A DNA stretch of 30,057 bases from Candidatus Gastranaerophilales bacterium. GTDB taxonomy: Bacteria; Cyanobacteriota; Vampirovibrionia; Gastranaerophilales; Gastranaerophilaceae. This document shows positions 3,788-24,200 of the stretch, in pieces. The stretch covers positions 1 through 30,057 of the forward strand of contig CALUTA010000001.1 in NCBI GenBank assembly GCA_944323585.1. The letters are read 5' to 3'. The first letter of the stretch is position 1; the number at the start of each line of letters is the position of its first letter. Under the pieces are notes generated by a model. The model saw nothing but the letters and a program-made list of their open reading frames with translations. It was not told the origin of the DNA and made no database searches. A program made the translations under genes and the position numbers.

Positions 3788-4630
3788 TTACAGTTGTTTA
3801 TAGTTTGTAATTTCAAAACCTAATCTGTAGATTTTATTTTCCAGTTCTTTATTTTGAGTAATCAGAAATTCGTTATAATGGCTGTCCTTAATATTAGAGT
3901 TGTATTTGCAAGGGTGAATCAGCGCTTCTGCAATACAATTTTCGTCAGGCAAAGCTTCAAGCCCGTATTCAACCGTCATATCATCCATCATACCCGTATA
4001 TCCTACACCCAGAAGATAATCATTCGTCTTTAATCCCGTATTTTCCAGCTGTTTTTTATTGATTTTGGTAAAATGGTTAAGCAGCAAAATTTTTAAAATA
4101 TTGATCGGATATTTAAAGTTCAGATGTTTGCTTAATTTCGGAACTGTATAAAAAGCTTCATGCTGGGTTCTAATGTAAGGAATGTTATATTCCTTTGCCA
4201 GTTTAACAACAATTTTAAAAATCTCAGGAATTGCGTGGGTGTGCACGTGTGAATCTATATGGTCAGGTTTCGTGATAGAGATAATTTTTTCTATCTGTGC
4301 TCTAAACTCGTTTTCAATCTGCTTTTGAACATTCTTATTTTTTGCCTTGAAAATTAATGAAAGGTAGCCTTGATTGAACATCCCGCTGTCATCTGTCAGC
4401 AGATGGCATTTTGTAAGCGCATGTCCTTCCATAATGTTAAGATGAACCCCGATTCCAAGCGCCGAACATTCAGGAAGAATTTCATTAACAGCATTATCAA
4501 AAGCCGGCCCGTTCGCACACAGGCTTGTACTTTTAAGCAGTCCTCTTCCGTATGCATAAAGCACAGCCCTGTTAAAATCATTTGTCATGCCAAAATCATC
4601 AGCATTAAGTATAAATTTTTTCTCAGCCAT
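3788..4630 (-). CDS. YdjC/ChbG-family carbohydrate deacetylase
   Basis: ILNADDFG, GVHLN, HIDSHVHTH and LIHP motifs. The stop codon abuts the PLD gene start (TAAATG). Confidence 0.9.
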   Translation of the reverse strand: MAEKKFILNADDFGMTNDFNRAVLYAYGRGLLKSTSLCANGPAFDNAVNEILPECSALGIGVHLNIMEGHALTKCHLLTDDSGMFNQGYLSLIFKAKNKNVQKQIENEFRAQIEKIISITKPDHIDSHVHTHAIPEIFKIVVKLAKEYNIPYIRTQHEAFYTVPKLSKHLNFKYPINILKILLLNHFTKINKKQLENTGLKTNDYLLGVGYTGMMDDMTVEYGLEALPDENCIAEALIHPCKYNSNIKDSHYNEFLITQNKELENKIYRLGFEITNYKQL

Positions 4631-6137: not shown

Positions 6138-6393
6138 GCCGTGCTCCACGGGGAATTGCAATCCCTTGACCGGAAGTTAATGCCGGGTGCAGAGCCTGTT
6201 GTGAGGGTTGTGTGAGCGGGGTAAAAGTTAATATTTTTGTTGATAGTTATGGTCAGGGCGGCGTAAAACTCCGAACCGTGTCAGGATGGAAACATAGCAG
6301 CACTAAGGTGACCTTTGCGGGTGTCTTGATTATAAAAGTAGAAAATATTTTCTAATACTCCGGTTTGCCCGATTCGATAGACAGAGGCACGGC
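6138..6393 (+). ncRNA. ffs: Signal recognition particle RNA, large bacterial type with Alu domain (~256 nt)
   Basis: Helix 8 core TCAGG-ATG-GAAA-CAT-AGCAGC at 6281-6301, equivalent to E. coli CAGG-UCC-GGAA-GGA-AGCAGC. The 5' GCCGTGC pairs with the 3' GCACGGC, followed by a T tract. Two short 5' hairpins (GGGA..TCCC, CCGG..CCGG), as in Bacillus scRNA. Confidence 0.92.
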
Positions 6394-7585: not shown

Positions 7586-9361
7586 ATGAGCAGGGATTTT
7601 AGATATAAAGATTACGTAAATACATTAAGATTTAAACTCGCCGGTGCAGTAGTAGGTTTGGACGAGTATTGTGAAAAACTTATCAGAAAATATATATATA
7701 ACAGTGTATTGTCTGCAGCAAAGGCTGTTTATGAAAATCCGGAGGTTTCGCCCGAAGCATGCGAAATAATCACAAGGACAATTGGGGAATGGACAGTTTG
7801 TAAATTAGCTGATATTATTAACGGTCATGTGCCTGATTGTTTCTTTGATACGATTATTAATAAAATAAACTCAGGAATTTACGATTACTTACTTGACGAA
7901 AACAAGCTTGAACCTCTGACTGAGGAAAGTTTAGAAAATCCAGACAGGCTTAATAAACTGGAAGAAATTGTTCAAAATATTTACGGAGAGACACTTGCGC
8001 AGATATATTCTGACAGAGGGATAGATAAAGAGACTTATATCCTTGCGCTTTCACAGTCATTTTATTCAGATAAGCAAAATCAAGATGAAGAGCCAGATAA
8101 AGATACGCAAGAGAAAAATTTAAAAACAGATAAATTTATATATTCACCGGTAAAGTTATCAGAATTTGCAAAAATTAAAAAATATCTTAAAAACAACCCT
8201 TGCAGAGTTTTATTGCTCTTCGTGTTTATTGTTGCGATTTTATTTTTACCTTTAATCTGTCTCGGCTTAATACCCATGTCAAAAGAAGATTTATGGGCTG
8301 CATTAATGGCAGTGTTTTTGTGTATGTGGGTTTATATATTTGACATAATCATAGAAGCCGACCTATTTGACAGAATTGAGCAGAAACTAAAATTATCCGA
8401 ATGCAACGGGCAGGAGCAGAATTCTGTGGAATTAAACAGCCCGAACGAAATGTATGAGCGCCTTGGGGTAGATATTTTATCTATCAGATTAGGCACCGGT
8501 TTGTTGAATTATGCTGCGCCTGAGTTCGATAACATTTTGCTGCCTTTGATTTCCGAAGTAAGGAAAGAATTTACCGAAGAGCTCGGTTATATTATACCGA
8601 AGGTCAGATGTCTGGATGATAAGGACTTAAGGCCTGATGAATTCCGTATTTATGTCCGCGGGGTTATGAGAGATAATTTTTTTGCAGGCAAAAATACTAA
8701 AAATGATGAAATTTCAACACTTCTTCGGCAACACTTAAAAGAATGCTGTATTAAAAACGTAAAGGATATATTGACAAGAACTGATGTTATAAAACTTATG
8801 GAAATTGTAAGTTCGCAGGATCCGACCCTTGTAAATGACCTGATTCCATCAAGAATATCCGCAGTTGATTTACGCAGGATACTTGTATCTTTGATAAGAG
8901 AAGAAATTTCTGTTAAGGATACTATTCTTATATTTGAAAGACTTTGTGATTATGCAAGATTTAATACTCAGCCTCACGTTCTTGTTGAAAGTCTTAGAGC
9001 GGCAATGTCCGCACAAATATGTGATAAGTATTCCGTAAAAACGGACAACGGTATGATTTTATATGCCCTAACACTAAACAGTGGACTTGAAAAAATACTT
9101 GCAGAAGCGGTACAATATACAGAATTCGGCACAATAATCAAACTTCAGCCGGATCAGATTGAACAGTTAATTATGGATGTCAACAAAACTATATCTGGCT
9201 TGAATACGCATAAAAAAGATGCAGTACTTCTTGTTACCCCCAAAATTCGTAAACCATTGTTCGACTTGCTTTCTGAATATATTGACAATATTAAAATTAT
9301 GTCGTACTCCGAACTTTTGCCTGCAGTCGAAATGAAAGTAGAAATACTGGCTGAAATTTAA
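7586..9361 (+). CDS. FHIPEP/FlhA-like protein: novel N-terminal domain, 2 TM helices, FlhA cytoplasmic domain lacking D2
   Basis: The C-terminal ~300 aa follow FlhA_C: VDILSIRLGTGLL, VRKEFTEELGYIIPKVRCLDD..L...EFRIYVRGV, LTRTDV..LME...DPTLVNDLIP, LRRILVSLIREEISVKDTILIFERL, LVESLRAAM, MSYSEL. Two hydrophobic helices at about aa 208-257. Confidence 0.85.
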   Translation: MSRDFRYKDYVNTLRFKLAGAVVGLDEYCEKLIRKYIYNSVLSAAKAVYENPEVSPEACEIITRTIGEWTVCKLADIINGHVPDCFFDTIINKINSGIYDYLLDENKLEPLTEESLENPDRLNKLEEIVQNIYGETLAQIYSDRGIDKETYILALSQSFYSDKQNQDEEPDKDTQEKNLKTDKFIYSPVKLSEFAKIKKYLKNNPCRVLLLFVFIVAILFLPLICLGLIPMSKEDLWAALMAVFLCMWVYIFDIIIEADLFDRIEQKLKLSECNGQEQNSVELNSPNEMYERLGVDILSIRLGTGLLNYAAPEFDNILLPLISEVRKEFTEELGYIIPKVRCLDDKDLRPDEFRIYVRGVMRDNFFAGKNTKNDEISTLLRQHLKECCIKNVKDILTRTDVIKLMEIVSSQDPTLVNDLIPSRISAVDLRRILVSLIREEISVKDTILIFERLCDYARFNTQPHVLVESLRAAMSAQICDKYSVKTDNGMILYALTLNSGLEKILAEAVQYTEFGTIIKLQPDQIEQLIMDVNKTISGLNTHKKDAVLLVTPKIRKPLFDLLSEYIDNIKIMSYSELLPAVEMKVEILAEI

Positions 9362-13451: not shown

Positions 13452-13820
13452 TTATACAAATGAGGTAAAGCCACCGCCTCCGCCGCAGGAACCTGAACTT
13501 ACAGCGCCGCCGCCTGCACTTGCTCCGGCAAATCCGCCTGAACAATCAGTTCCGATAACGGCAACTGCGTTTGCAAAACTGCTCAAAAATCCTGATTGGG
13601 ATGCTGTGCTGAATTCACTGCTTGCATAGTTTGAATAATCTACATTTACTGTATGTGGTGTATTAAAAATTATTGTGTCATATGAATTCATTGCAAGATA
13701 ACTTTTTTCAGACTTTAATGCTAATGAACCTGCAGTTTCTGCTGTTTCATTCTGTTTTGCTTTGATAGCAGGTGCTGTTGCTTGTTGTTGTGAAGTGCGT
13801 GCAAAAATGTTGTTTGTCAT
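13452..13820 (-). CDS. Small Ser/Gly/Ala-rich hypothetical protein
   Basis: AAGGAG RBS, own terminator, 122 aa. Ends DCSGGFAGASAGGGAVSSGSCGGGGGFTSFV. Confidence 0.75.
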   Translation of the reverse strand: MTNNIFARTSQQQATAPAIKAKQNETAETAGSLALKSEKSYLAMNSYDTIIFNTPHTVNVDYSNYASSEFSTASQSGFLSSFANAVAVIGTDCSGGFAGASAGGGAVSSGSCGGGGGFTSFV

Positions 13821-13895: not shown

Positions 13896-13913
13896 GTAAC
13901 ATTTGTTTACAAT
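13896..13913 (+). promoter_or_regulatory. HLR1-like direct repeat (1 mismatch)
   Basis: GTAACATT-TG-TTTACAAT against the consensus KTTACAWW-N2-KTTACAWW. Confidence 0.4.
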
Positions 13914-14033: not shown

Positions 14034-14690
14034 ATGAAAAAACTGTTAATTAATATTGTATTATTAGTCACTTTAATTACTTCAGCTGCTTACGCATCTG
14101 ATAACAGCCTGAATTCAGTTATAATTGAAGGCACTACATCTGGAACATATCATATTATTTTACGTTCGGACAGAGTTGCCAATGTTAAAAAGACGGTTCA
14201 AGAAGACGGAACATTGCTTCTGGAGTTAAAAAACATTTCCACATCTCTTAATCTTGACACCAAGTATGTAAACACGAATGCAATTGACAATGTAGTAGTT
14301 GAAAACACATCAAATAATGGTGTAAATATTTATATTCAAGCACCTGAAGCGGAAAAGGCAGATATAATTTTCGATACACCTGCGGCTCCGCCTGTTGTTG
14401 TCAGCGACGGCATCAGCAAAAATCAAATAGGTTGGATTGCGGCTGCTTTTCTTGTTATTTGTTTAGCAGCAGGAAGTTTCAAAAAATCCGTTGAAAACGA
14501 CGCTAAAGAAACATTTAAAAACGATCTTACCGAGCGGGAAATCAAATTTTACAAGGAATATAAATCAGATATTATTACATCAGCCAAAATTGATAACAAG
14601 ATCAAAGAACGACTGGCTAAAGCAAGAATAGCTAATATTACACAAAAAGCAGCAACGTTGAGATCTTTACAGAAAATGTCAATGAAATAA
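14034..14690 (+). CDS. Membrane protein: signal peptide, AMIN-like beta domain, TM helix, basic cytoplasmic tail
   Basis: Signal peptide ending AYA. Beta-rich segment (YHIILRSD...TLLLELKN...IDNVVVE...VNIYI). TM IGWIAAAFLVICLAAG. The AMIN call is tentative. Confidence 0.6.
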   Translation: MKKLLINIVLLVTLITSAAYASDNSLNSVIIEGTTSGTYHIILRSDRVANVKKTVQEDGTLLLELKNISTSLNLDTKYVNTNAIDNVVVENTSNNGVNIYIQAPEAEKADIIFDTPAAPPVVVSDGISKNQIGWIAAAFLVICLAAGSFKKSVENDAKETFKNDLTEREIKFYKEYKSDIITSAKIDNKIKERLAKARIANITQKAATLRSLQKMSMK

Positions 14691-20834: not shown

Positions 20835-22373
20835 TCAAGCTTCTAATAATCTTGTGCACTCGTTTTTTAAAAATTCTTTTCCCGGTTTAACATCAATGAA
20901 ATCCCAGGGCAGATTTGCGCCAAAATCAAATGTTTCGAGTGCATAATAGTCAGAATTGATTTTATGTTGTTTTGCTGATTTTTTGAAATCGCCGAGTTTT
21001 CCGCCGTTTTTGTAAACATCAATTAAAAAGTCAGTAAATCCTTCTCCGCCTCGGGAAAGAACAGCTTGCCAGTAGTCCCACTTTATACTTGAAACCGTGG
21101 TCTGAACTCCAATTTTATGCATTTCTTTTTTCAGGTATTGAACCTTTTGTTCAAGCGGCTTTGTTGCTTCACGGCCTATCCACTGAAATGGCGTGTTAGG
21201 CTTGGGTACAAAACTGGAAAAACCAAAACTAATATCAAAACTCTTATAATTCTTTTTAATTTTTTGAGCAAGAGAAACAAGAGCATTGATGTCTTCGTCT
21301 GTTTCTGTCGGAAGGCCTATCATACCATAGAATTTAAGCCCTTTTAAACCGGCATTTGCAGAAATATTTACTGCTTCAAATATCTTTTCTTCAGGTAAAT
21401 TTTTGTTTATAACTTTTCGTAAACGGTCGCTTCCAGCTTCTATTGCAAGGGTTATATTCTTTTGGCCGGCATCAACAAGAGTTTTAACTATTTCAGGCTT
21501 AACAGCATCAACCCGCAAAGATGATACGCTCATTTCTATTTTTTTACCTGACTTTATTTTATTGTCTATAAACTTGAAAATCTCCGTAAATTGGGGATGT
21601 GCGCTAATTTGTGCACCCAAAAGCGCGATTTTATGCGTATATTTCAATCCTAAATCAATATATCTAAGAATATCCTCATAAGGAGCGCATCTTAAAGGTA
21701 AGTTCATATAAGATGCAAGGCAAAAACCGCATCTGTTAGCGCATCCACGTGCCATTTCAATAATAAAAGTATTGCTGAAAAAGGCATCCGGGCTTATTAT
21801 CGGAGTATATACACAGCTTTCCAGACGTTTTGTAAGCTTTTTAACCTTCTCTTGCCGCAGAGAAGGTACATAAATACCCTCAAGCTCTGCAAGTTTTTCA
21901 AGAATTTTATTTTTAGGTTCTCCTTTGGATGATTTACAAACTTCTACGACCTTCAGATTAATATCTTCGCCATCTCCGATAATTATAAAATCGAAAAAGT
22001 CTTTGTATGGAATAGGATTAGCGCTTACCACCGGACCTCCGGCAAATATAAGAGGGCAATCTGCATCTCTTTCAGAGGACTTCAGCGGAATTGCAAATCT
22101 TTCCAGTGTTGAAAAAATACTAATAAAATCAGTATCAAAGGTAAAAGAAAATCCGATTAAATTAACGTTTTCAATCCTGTATTTTGTAGTTTTTGTGTCA
22201 GTGCAGAGCATTTCTATATTAACATCATCAAGCCGGTCAATATCCTTAAACATCCACAGATACCCCAAAGACGACAGAGCAAAAGATTTCACCCCGGGAA
22301 ATGCCAGCCATACCGTATAGTCCGCATTTTTTGAGATATTTCTTTTATAAAGATATATATCAGAATTACTCAT
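20835..22373 (-). CDS. Radical SAM protein with an N-terminal B12-binding-like domain (COG1032-like)
   Basis: IEMARGCANRCGFC (CxxxCxxC); GGPVVSANP; IIGDGED; SSLRVD; AIEAGSDRLR..INK; MIGLPTET; FVPKPNTPFQW. Confidence 0.88.
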   Translation of the reverse strand: MSNSDIYLYKRNISKNADYTVWLAFPGVKSFALSSLGYLWMFKDIDRLDDVNIEMLCTDTKTTKYRIENVNLIGFSFTFDTDFISIFSTLERFAIPLKSSERDADCPLIFAGGPVVSANPIPYKDFFDFIIIGDGEDINLKVVEVCKSSKGEPKNKILEKLAELEGIYVPSLRQEKVKKLTKRLESCVYTPIISPDAFFSNTFIIEMARGCANRCGFCLASYMNLPLRCAPYEDILRYIDLGLKYTHKIALLGAQISAHPQFTEIFKFIDNKIKSGKKIEMSVSSLRVDAVKPEIVKTLVDAGQKNITLAIEAGSDRLRKVINKNLPEEKIFEAVNISANAGLKGLKFYGMIGLPTETDEDINALVSLAQKIKKNYKSFDISFGFSSFVPKPNTPFQWIGREATKPLEQKVQYLKKEMHKIGVQTTVSSIKWDYWQAVLSRGGEGFTDFLIDVYKNGGKLGDFKKSAKQHKINSDYYALETFDFGANLPWDFIDVKPGKEFLKNECTRLLEA

Positions 22374-23421
22374 TTGCCTCCGGATTCGGGTCTGATTTTT
22401 CGTTAATCGGTTTTATATAAAGTTCATCAATTAAAACGCATATGGTTGAAGCAATGGCAGGCGAAAGTAGTACTCCAAGAAATCCTAAAAATTGTTCGCA
22501 GACAAATAATGCCAGAAATATTGTTAACGGGTGAAGTTTCATAAACTTTCCGAACAAAAGCGGTCTTACAACAATATTTGAAGCCTGTTGGATAAGGAAA
22601 AAAGTGACAAGTAGCAAAATCAACTTGACAATTCCTACCGGATATGCAACCAAAAGAATTATAACAAGCGCAATTGTAGGCCCTAAAACAGGAACAATGT
22701 CCATTAAACCTGTAATTAACCCGAGAAGAAGCGGGTAGTCAACACCAAGAATAATAAGTACCAGCATCTGCAACAAACCTATTGCAATCATGGAAAGAAC
22801 CTGTGCCCTTACGTATCCGCCGACTTTGCTGCTTATTGTATTAAATATATCCGAAGCTCGTTTCTTAAGATTTTGCGGGAATAGTTCTTGAAACTTGTCA
22901 ATTAAGTATTCTTTGTCAACAAGCAGATAAAATATAATCATACCAATGGCGACAGTAACAACAAAAAACTGAAATACACCTATTGTTATATTCCACGACT
23001 GACTAAAAACACTGTGTGCAAAATCAGGATTTGTATCCAGAATAGAACTAAAATTAACAAGATCCGCAATCTTGTGCCCGTAAATTTTTAATGTTGTTAC
23101 ATAATTTGCTGCATCAATTATTTTGTCAGGGAATACCTGAATAAACGTTTTTATTTCCTTATAAGCAATTGCAATAATCGGAGCAAACAATGCAAATAAG
23201 GCCAGCAGGCCGCCAAAAACAGTAATCACAGCAGCAAGCGTACGATTATTTTTTAATTTTGTCTGCAATTTTTCAACAAAAGGATCCATAGCACAGGCGA
23301 TTACATATGCTGCAAAAAACAACATTACAATTCCTGTTATTTTGGGCAGAATTAGCAGCAAAATTACTATCCCAGCAATAAAAGCTATATTTTTAACGGA
23401 AAAAAAACGCGCTGATATCAT
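22366..23421 (-). CDS. AI-2E family (PerM) transporter
   Basis: Multiple TMs; VGGYVRAQ, IVPVLGP, VVRPLLFGK.MKLHPL, GFLGVLLSPAIA. Overlaps the radical SAM gene by 8 nt. Confidence 0.92.
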   Translation of the reverse strand: MISARFFSVKNIAFIAGIVILLLILPKITGIVMLFFAAYVIACAMDPFVEKLQTKLKNNRTLAAVITVFGGLLALFALFAPIIAIAYKEIKTFIQVFPDKIIDAANYVTTLKIYGHKIADLVNFSSILDTNPDFAHSVFSQSWNITIGVFQFFVVTVAIGMIIFYLLVDKEYLIDKFQELFPQNLKKRASDIFNTISSKVGGYVRAQVLSMIAIGLLQMLVLIILGVDYPLLLGLITGLMDIVPVLGPTIALVIILLVAYPVGIVKLILLLVTFFLIQQASNIVVRPLLFGKFMKLHPLTIFLALFVCEQFLGFLGVLLSPAIASTICVLIDELYIKPINEKSDPNPEANE

Positions 23422-23534
23422 ATAAATTTAATACCTTTCAAGCAAACTAAAATACCTGATAAGTTTAACAGCAAAAGGATTTTTTTGCAATTCCGTTACA
23501 GAATGAAACAAATTATCAGTTTAGAAAAAAGATA

Positions 23535-23562
23535 AATGTAAATATTTGTAAATTTTTGTAAA
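23535..23562 (-). repeat. Triple 10-bp-period direct repeat identical to the HLR1 consensus
   Basis: Minus strand TTTACAAA-AA-TTTACAAA-TA-TTTACATT; all three octamers fit KTTACAWW with 2-nt spacers. Confidence 0.75.
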
Positions 23563-23642
23563 AAAAGCAGGCAAAAAAGTAAATTCAGAACAAAATATAT
23601 ACTTTATATATTTAACGAGGACTAAAAGAATAGAGGTTCAAG

Positions 23643-24161
23643 ATGGGTTTCCTAACCGGCGCATACTTAAAAATGACAACAGCGCGAATGCGGATTCAGC
23701 TCCAGCATGAGTTGACCTCCATTATGTCGCAGATGAACCGGGTGACCAAACAGATTGGTCAAGCCGAAAAGATGCTCACGGCTCAACAAAGAAACGGTGA
23801 TATGATGTTGAGGCAGCAGACTATGCAGTCGGTTTTTGGAGGGGCAAATTTTGCTGGATTTGATCCCAGCAACCCTGCAAGTTTGACAGGTGTAGATGCA
23901 CAAAAACTTCAAAGCTTTAGTGTATTGCAACAGGAAGCAAATTACAGATATGCAAACGCACAATCTGTCTGGGCAAACTATTTTGAAATGGTTAAAGAGG
24001 CACAGCTTGAGCCGTTAAAAGCTTTAGAAGAGAACCTTGCGGTAAGAAAAGCAAACATTGAATCAAGGTTGAACTTGCTCAAAGGTCAGGAAGAAGCCGC
24101 ACAGAATATGGAAAAATCTTCTCAGCAAGACTTCGTTCCCCAGTATACGGGCGGTCAATAA
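23643..24161 (+). CDS. Hypothetical Gln/Met/Ala-rich helical-hairpin protein
   Basis: AGAGG RBS; long amphipathic helices either side of a GGANFAGFDPSNP loop; no Cys; own terminator. Confidence 0.8.
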   Translation: MGFLTGAYLKMTTARMRIQLQHELTSIMSQMNRVTKQIGQAEKMLTAQQRNGDMMLRQQTMQSVFGGANFAGFDPSNPASLTGVDAQKLQSFSVLQQEANYRYANAQSVWANYFEMVKEAQLEPLKALEENLAVRKANIESRLNLLKGQEEAAQNMEKSSQQDFVPQYTGGQ

Positions 24162-24170
24162 TAAAAATTT

Positions 24171-24200
24171 AGCCCCCTTGCAATTGCAAGGGGGCTTTTT
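24171..24200. terminator. Bidirectional intrinsic terminator (perfect 26-bp palindrome)
   Basis: AGCCCCCTTGCAA|TTGCAAGGGGGCT (24171-24196) followed by TTTT, between convergent genes. Confidence 0.85.

Follow-up and report, generated by a model that had tools for sequence, protein, structure and literature searches.

We predict that the 28-bp element at positions 23535-23562 of the window (the whole 30,057-nt stretch of DNA analysed here) is a genuine and conserved operator of the HLR1 type, carried by a non-photosynthetic relative of the cyanobacteria. We further consider it fairly probable, judging from sequence comparisons, that this operator activates the adjacent gene for a 172-aa orphan protein, with RpaB as its most probable binder. 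The preliminary description of this DNA had taken the genome to be apparently non-photosynthetic, which agrees with its placement in the Gastranaerophilaceae (Melainabacteria), a cyanobacterial relative.

A triple HLR1 box between divergent genes

On the plus strand the element reads AATGTAAATATTTGTAAATTTTTGTAAA. The boxes belong to the minus strand, on which it reads TTTACAAA-AA-TTTACAAA-TA-TTTACATT; here the octamer KTTACAWW occurs three times without mismatch, the starts lying 10 bp apart. The sequence and 10-bp period had been described correctly at the outset, with the strand left unstated. Together the three half-sites make two overlapping exact HLR1 dimers, and this is the sole exact HLR1 triple in the genome, the next-best triples having at least two mismatches. 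The array lies in a 221-bp gap between a gene for an AI-2E family transporter on the minus strand and a 172-codon ORF on the plus strand, with 81 nt from the end of the boxes to the ATG at 23643 and 114 nt to the AI-2E start at 23421. The coordinates of the features are collected in Table 1. A weaker pair of boxes that had also been proposed in this gap (GTTACAGA-AT-GAAACAAA; GTTACAGAATGAAACAAA on the plus strand) was rejected as a site: the genome has 1787 matches with 3 mismatches, of which this is one, so that it is indistinguishable from chance, and it is shared only with the congeners G007 and G011. Elsewhere in the window, a second HLR1 dimer with one mismatch (GTAACATTTGTTTACAAT) lies at 13896-13913 (+), between divergent ORFs at 13452-13820 (-) and 14034-14690 (+); the N-terminus encoded by the latter is signal-peptide-like.

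Table 1. Features of the divergent intergenic region and its flanking genes (window coordinates; A1, alignment of eight congeners).
Feature	Position	Strand	Remarks
AI-2E family transporter gene, divergent	22366..23421	-	Pfam PF01594, E 5e-48; possible second target
Candidate AI-2E promoter	23462..23490	-	TTGCAA 23490-23485, 17 nt, TAAACT 23467-23462
Proposed weaker pair	23495..23512	+	Unsupported as a site
Three in-phase HLR1 half-sites	23535..23562	-	TTTACAAA 23562-23555, TTTACAAA 23552-23545, TTTACATT 23542-23535
Third HLR1 box	23535..23542	-	Second dimer register, 28 nt upstream of promoter box
Conserved HLR1 dimer	23545..23562	-	18 nt upstream of promoter box
Upstream box of core promoter, GTAAAT	23579..23584	+	[AC]AAT element at 23581-23584; columns G..AAT invariant in A1
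Downstream box of core promoter, TTTATATATT	23603..23612	+	Invariant in 8 species; -10-like TATATT at 23607-23612
Shine-Dalgarno AGAGG	23632..23636	+	6 nt before ATG; invariant in A1
172-aa orphan gene	23643..24161	+	Most likely regulated target
Intrinsic terminator-like hairpin	24171..24196	+	11-bp stem, 8 GC pairs, T-run; just 3' of the 172-aa gene

HLR1 dimers are enriched in the genome and across the family

The assembly that contains the window (G000) comprises 1.53 Mb in 191 contigs, is 62% AT overall and is 87.8% complete. The HLR1 octamer [GT]TTACA[AT][AT] occurs 1372 times on its two strands, at a frequency per position of 1.15e-3 in intergenic DNA (69% AT) against 3.7e-4 in coding DNA. 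From the measured intergenic frequency, 0.43 intergenic dimers and 0.0005 triples would be expected; the genome holds 25 exact HLR1 dimers, 22 of them intergenic, and one triple, in keeping with the earlier claim that three octamers in phase were very unlikely by chance. Spacing was equally discriminating. Octamers on the same strand form 25 pairs at a start-to-start distance of 10 bp and between 0 and 4 pairs at any other spacing from 6 to 45, with 4 at 11 bp. When 40 column-permuted direct repeats of the same composition were run, the mean was 1.1 exact dimers, and the only high-scoring permuted motifs were phase-shifted copies of HLR1. A comparison with background, which the preliminary description had proposed, thus gives 25 exact dimers against about one for permuted motifs or other spacings. 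With up to one mismatch allowed, 76 sites are found in the genome, mostly 35-165 nt upstream of start codons and in either orientation.

The same pattern extends across the family. All 44 Gastranaerophilaceae genomes searched carry between 9 and 43 exact dimers, compared with 0-12 for the reversed control, and an N4 spacing run in 18 family-mates gave 1-5 dimers. Members of the Cyanobacteriia, used as a positive control, have 2-15 exact dimers against 0-2, and other non-photosynthetic families have 0-4. When the phyletic profile of RpaB was compared with HLR1 enrichment, the outcome was mixed: genome G019 has RpaB but only 2 exact HLR1 dimers, and conversely genome G025, which is 99% complete, lacks an RpaB orthologue although 11 of the 25 matches at gaps of 0-14 fall at N2. 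With these two genomes discordant, the pattern of presence and absence gives no clean link between the motif and RpaB. The gene neighbourhood of rpaB, examined for a possible loss in G025, is kept only within the genus. This relative without a detectable rpaB also has an exact triple HLR1 box of its own (TTTACAAAACGTTACAATTATTTACAAA) at G025:C11:129365-129392.

The dimer and its distance from the core promoter are conserved

We aligned the orthologous intergenic regions of eight congeners (A1). The two boxes nearest the 172-aa gene, whose conservation the preliminary description had put forward as a check, are kept in all eight, exactly in six of them and with 1-2 mismatches in G014 and G015; the orthologous dimer sites in G005, G008 and G010 are exact. 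The TTACA cores are retained at exactly 10 bp, with variable bases in the spacers. The third box is found in G000, G007 and G011 only, the three closest species, and on this comparison it is a lineage-recent addition. No indels fall between the boxes and the core promoter, as far as the 5' leader; the AI-2E side does have indels. Beyond the boxes, the alignment contains an invariant block consisting of G(T/G)(A/C)AAT, 18 nt and then TTTATATATTTAACGAGGAC.

A sigma-70-type scan of this region returned TTCAGA-17-TATATT at 23584-23612. Judging from the conserved TATATT, transcription would start near 23619, and the centres of the two dimers would then lie at about -65 and about -75. The motif [AC]AAT-N18-TTTATATA has 38 occurrences in the genome, compared with 3-10 at other spacers from 14 to 22, and on its sequence the core promoter of the 172-aa gene belongs to this predicted lineage-specific class. 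At fifteen of the 38 class promoters an HLR1 site with up to 2 mismatches lies in the 60 nt upstream, likewise in reverse orientation; permuted controls yield 1.7. Distances between HLR1 and promoter fall mainly into two groups, 17-20 nt (10 sites) and 27-29 nt (4 sites), and gaps of 27-29 nt are used alone at 4 other promoters of the genome. The triple box provides both, 18 nt from boxes 1 and 2 and 28 nt from boxes 2 and 3; three boxes may therefore be present in one site because two helically phased registers are covered in this way. A single fixed -10 distance common to all HLR1 sites was looked for and not found, the architecture being heterogeneous.

In chicken-gut RNA libraries, assembled contigs span the 172-aa gene between 23624/23625 and 24151-24176, and none of the four RNA runs covers 23443-23623. 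The 23624/23625 ends come from two runs of one sample, in one of which adapter sequence abuts the end. We rejected these data as a measure of transcription start or expression, as they are contigs only and the matching ends derive from one sample. Over 23839-23924 the contigs exchange 84 nt for a diverged stretch of the same length, corresponding to the loop between the helices of the 172-aa product, which suggests strain variation in this linker.

The 172-aa protein is an orphan with a predicted helical-hairpin fold

The 172-aa protein has no Pfam or NCBIfam match. In the Atlas it was found only in unnamed Melainabacteria clusters, an LcrV row at 0.76 being at chance level, and in 8 congeners it is 59-97% identical. 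Its AlphaFold2 model (pLDDT 85.9) is a long antiparallel alpha-helical hairpin with helices at 2-71 and 86-163; a Foldseek search of the PDB with this model returned generic coiled-coil matches only, the best at an E of 0.05. The hairpin that follows the gene makes it a one-gene unit.

RpaB is present in the lineage with an unchanged recognition helix

The preliminary description had proposed an RpaB-like regulator with the same specificity, and an RpaB is indeed encoded by the congeners. With the NCBIfam equivalog model for RpaB (NF045944), 16 of 17 congeners reach about 361 bits, above the cut-off of 330 bits. Among 31 relatives, 28 exceed this cut-off, and an RpaB match at E <= 1e-80 was found in 79 of 81 genomes across the phylum. 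The RpaB of the congeners is 71% identical to that of the Cyanobacteriia. A comparison of recognition helices, as had been proposed, found both the helix (DTRVVDVHISRLRxKLE) and the wing (LILTARGxGYxFQ) identical in the two groups. By these sequence measures the Gastranaerophilaceae lineage has a true RpaB.

The assembly itself differs on this point. A search for rpaB in the 87.8%-complete assembly did not find it, the best match being RpaA-like at 37% identity, so that this part of the proposal did not hold for G000. The absence of an RpaB-clade regulator, named beforehand as an outcome that would count against the proposal, was thus observed here, but in an assembly that is short (1.53 Mb against about 1.9 Mb for congeners, or about 0.4 Mb less) and in which the whole rpaB neighbourhood is missing: orthologues were sought for the roughly 13 genes of the 10.7-kb neighbourhood that surrounds rpaB in G007, the closest relative, and none was found. 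An assembly gap is the simplest reading of the absence, though not a proven one.

The sole OmpR-type (Trans_reg_C) regulator in the assembly, on contig C13, is RpaA-like. Its best PDB match is RpaA of S. elongatus (9dvt, E 1.3e-80), it scores 211 bits with the RpaB equivalog, below the cut-off, and its recognition helix, DVETIRVHIRHLRSKLD, matches that of S. elongatus RpaA; it is therefore nearer RpaA than RpaB and carries an RpaA-type recognition helix. The genus has two RpaA-like paralogues with differing helices, IRHLRSK and VGGLRNK. Of 31 genomes, 29 have a single copy of an NblS-like kinase (HAMP-PAS-HisKA-HATPase), among them G000, where it lies on contig C52; its score is 288-350 bits against a cut-off of 1000 for the NblS/Hik33 equivalog (NF045911), and the domain architecture is present in G007. 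In a published tree, Melainabacteria homologues are placed at the root of the NblS clade (bioRxiv 10.1101/2025.01.21.633742).

Alternative explanations

Any account of the element has to face the facts that the motif was picked post hoc and that the intergenic DNA is AT-rich. We nevertheless give chance occurrence a negligible probability, since it is already contradicted by the enrichment, with 25 dimers and a triple where a fraction of a dimer was expected, and by the retention of the site across eight species. It is also highly improbable that the array is no regulator site at all and is instead intrinsic to the promoter (phased A/T tracts, an UP-like element or a reiterated -35-like TTTACA, for example). 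TTTACA does resemble TTGACA, the sigma-70 scan returns TTTACA-16-TACATT within the boxes, and the region is AT-rich; however, permuted repeats matched in composition are not enriched, conservation falls on the phased TTACA core and spares the spacer bases, and the sites vary in orientation and in their distance from genes.

If the element is a regulator site, its binder could be an RpaA-like paralogue in place of RpaB, which we judge unlikely. The RpaA-like protein on C13 is the only OmpR-type regulator in the assembly, the N2 peak persists in G025, which has both RpaA-like types and no RpaB, and TGTAAA, the HLR1 core read on the other strand, includes the TAAA half-site reported for RpaA (PMC12916501). 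Against this, the C13 helix is that of S. elongatus RpaA, which binds a repeat of 11-bp period at another site than RpaB (PMC12916501), whereas the genomic peak is strictly at 10 bp and the RpaB helix is 100% conserved. We also think it quite improbable that the main target of the operator is the divergent AI-2E transporter gene and not the 172-aa gene. The boxes read 5'-3' toward the AI-2E gene within the shared intergenic region, and the third box is on the AI-2E side. The candidate AI-2E promoter was read by eye; both its hexamers are conserved in A1, and at 8 of 12 matches it is below the scan threshold. Measured from this promoter, the triple box would span about -80 to -107, outside both zones from which RpaB acts (PMC6525291); the distance on the AI-2E side varies by indels among species while that to the 172-aa promoter is fixed, and the module of reverse-oriented HLR1 and promoter recurs at other orphan genes. 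We therefore favor RpaB as the probable binder and the 172-aa gene as its likely target.

A model for RpaB action and its relation to known systems

In our model, a response regulator of the OmpR/PhoB family, most probably RpaB, would recognize the 28-bp element as three half-sites arranged head to tail. Once phosphorylated, RpaB dimers would occupy the direct repeats on one helix face, 18 nt and 28 nt upstream of the promoter's upstream box, and from about -65 and -75 RpaB would activate the one-gene unit encoding the 172-aa helical-hairpin orphan. The NblS/Hik33-like HAMP-PAS histidine kinase would supply the signal. In cyanobacteria the HLR1 consensus, its two positional classes and its use on either strand are established, RpaB activating from sites centered at -66 to -45 from the transcription start and repressing from -38 to +23 (PMC6525291, PMC13421787); the -65 center predicted here would coincide with the upstream edge of the activating zone as defined in Synechocystis.

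The closest known system is the HLR1/RpaB (Ycf27) regulon of cyanobacteria, plastids and cyanophages, which has the same consensus, KTTACAWW-N2-KTTACAWW (PMC6525291, PMC13421787). Shared with it are an RpaB orthologue with an identical recognition helix (in the congeners), an NblS-like HAMP-PAS kinase, and sites upstream of promoters in either orientation; multi-box promoters are known in Synechocystis too. In contrast, the host here is without photosynthesis and the flanked genes are mostly orphans, HLR1 stands at fixed, helically phased distances from promoters of a non-canonical class, and the density of sites per Mb, counted as predicted sites, is several-fold above that of Cyanobacteriia. 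The S. elongatus RpaA operator, upstream of the PkaiBC -35 (PDB 9dvt, PMC12916501), is a second comparison; RpaA-like genes are present here as well. RpaA binds TAAA-N7-TTAA, another site than RpaB (PMC12916501), and unlike the present array that operator has an 11-bp period in place of 10 and lacks the TTACA core; the recognition helix also differs.

The third box itself has parallels outside this group. In the multi-box arrays of the OmpR/PhoB family, such as pho boxes and OmpR F1-F3, direct repeats lie about one helical turn apart, and extra in-phase boxes permit additional or alternative dimer positions, much like the triple here. Consensus and regulator are different in those arrays, and here the third box overlaps the first dimer, giving two registers from three half-sites.

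To our knowledge, NblS-RpaB is known only as a light/redox switch of photosynthesis genes. We see about an even chance that in the Gastranaerophilaceae an ancestral NblS-RpaB pair drives a dedicated regulon of dozens of lineage-specific, mostly coiled-coil or low-complexity orphans through HLR1 sites helically phased to a non-canonical promoter class, of which the triple box would be a two-register version. If true, such a regulon would show what NblS-RpaB did in a cell without photosynthesis. Homologues of rpaA, rpaB and nblS in Melainabacteria have been published since 2013 (PMC3787301, PMC4040986, PMC5877343), and as they are kept without photosystems they must serve another role (PMC3787301). 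A full-text literature search found no paper that has HLR1 together with Melainabacteria, Vampirovibrionia or Gastranaerophilales, and no report on HLR1 sites or an RpaB regulon in Melainabacteria. Enriched, conserved HLR1 sites with definable downstream genes make this old question directly testable, with the regulon readable from the genome, and bear on whether the pairing of RpaB with HLR1 predates oxygenic photosynthesis and came to serve light acclimation at a later stage.

Other genes flanked by HLR1

The preliminary description had supposed that an RpaB-like regulator may control a different regulon here, and the flanked genes are indeed not photosynthesis genes: the 32 scanned are mostly orphans. 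Twenty-five of these have no Pfam family, compared with 3 of 19 other genes of the window (Fisher p 2e-5, the samples being not fully independent). Those with a Pfam family are a histidine kinase (on contig C10), an HD-GYP-type protein, two cytidylyltransferase-fold proteins (CTP_transf_like, PF01467; read by size as putative CoaD- and NadD-like enzymes), a TonB-C protein, an NAGPA glycosidase and the AI-2E transporter. The rpaA-like gene has a one-mismatch HLR1 site 114 nt upstream, and RpaB also binds upstream of rpaA in cyanobacteria (PMC13421787). Among the upstream regions of rpaA-like genes at 78 Gastranaerophilales loci, 10 have an HLR1 with at most one mismatch against 0.3 in controls, a modest signal in which the second half-site is degenerate.

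Two-component genes recur near these sites. An exact HLR1 at C10:168-185 lies 64 nt upstream of the gene for the 571-aa histidine kinase, and at C10:3728-3769 two one-mismatch dimers precede a gene for a stand-alone receiver domain (3832-4203); these may represent regulatory wiring among two-component genes. Several HLR1-flanked orphans have in common an N-terminal pattern of approximately M-x(2,4)-[IV]-[NS]-G-x-[YF] (for example MVYEINGNY, MVDAINGNY and MTNGINGDF). Its carriers in G000 are C2:7373-7975, C11:1469-2602, C48:8426-8800, C81:499-930, C167:1435-2229 and C32:10483-11394. These orphans are without a signal peptide, and the pattern may be a shared export or recognition tag.

Two features elsewhere in the window were also noted. 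A large bacterial SRP RNA is encoded at 6139-6392 (+; Rfam RF01854, 77.6 bits), and the product of 7586-9361 (+) matches the FHIPEP (FlhA-type export) family, so that flagellar-type export genes are present in the genome. Finally, two HLR1-flanked proteins of G000, of 659 aa (C19:8043-10022) and 374 aa (C90:3669-4793), have no Pfam match. They begin with MGM[AS]ASQARLLSIT, and their N- and C-terminal ends of about 130 aa are conserved (34-37% identity) around a variable middle. This layout is filament-subunit-like, and the N-terminus of the 172-aa protein is loosely similar to theirs.
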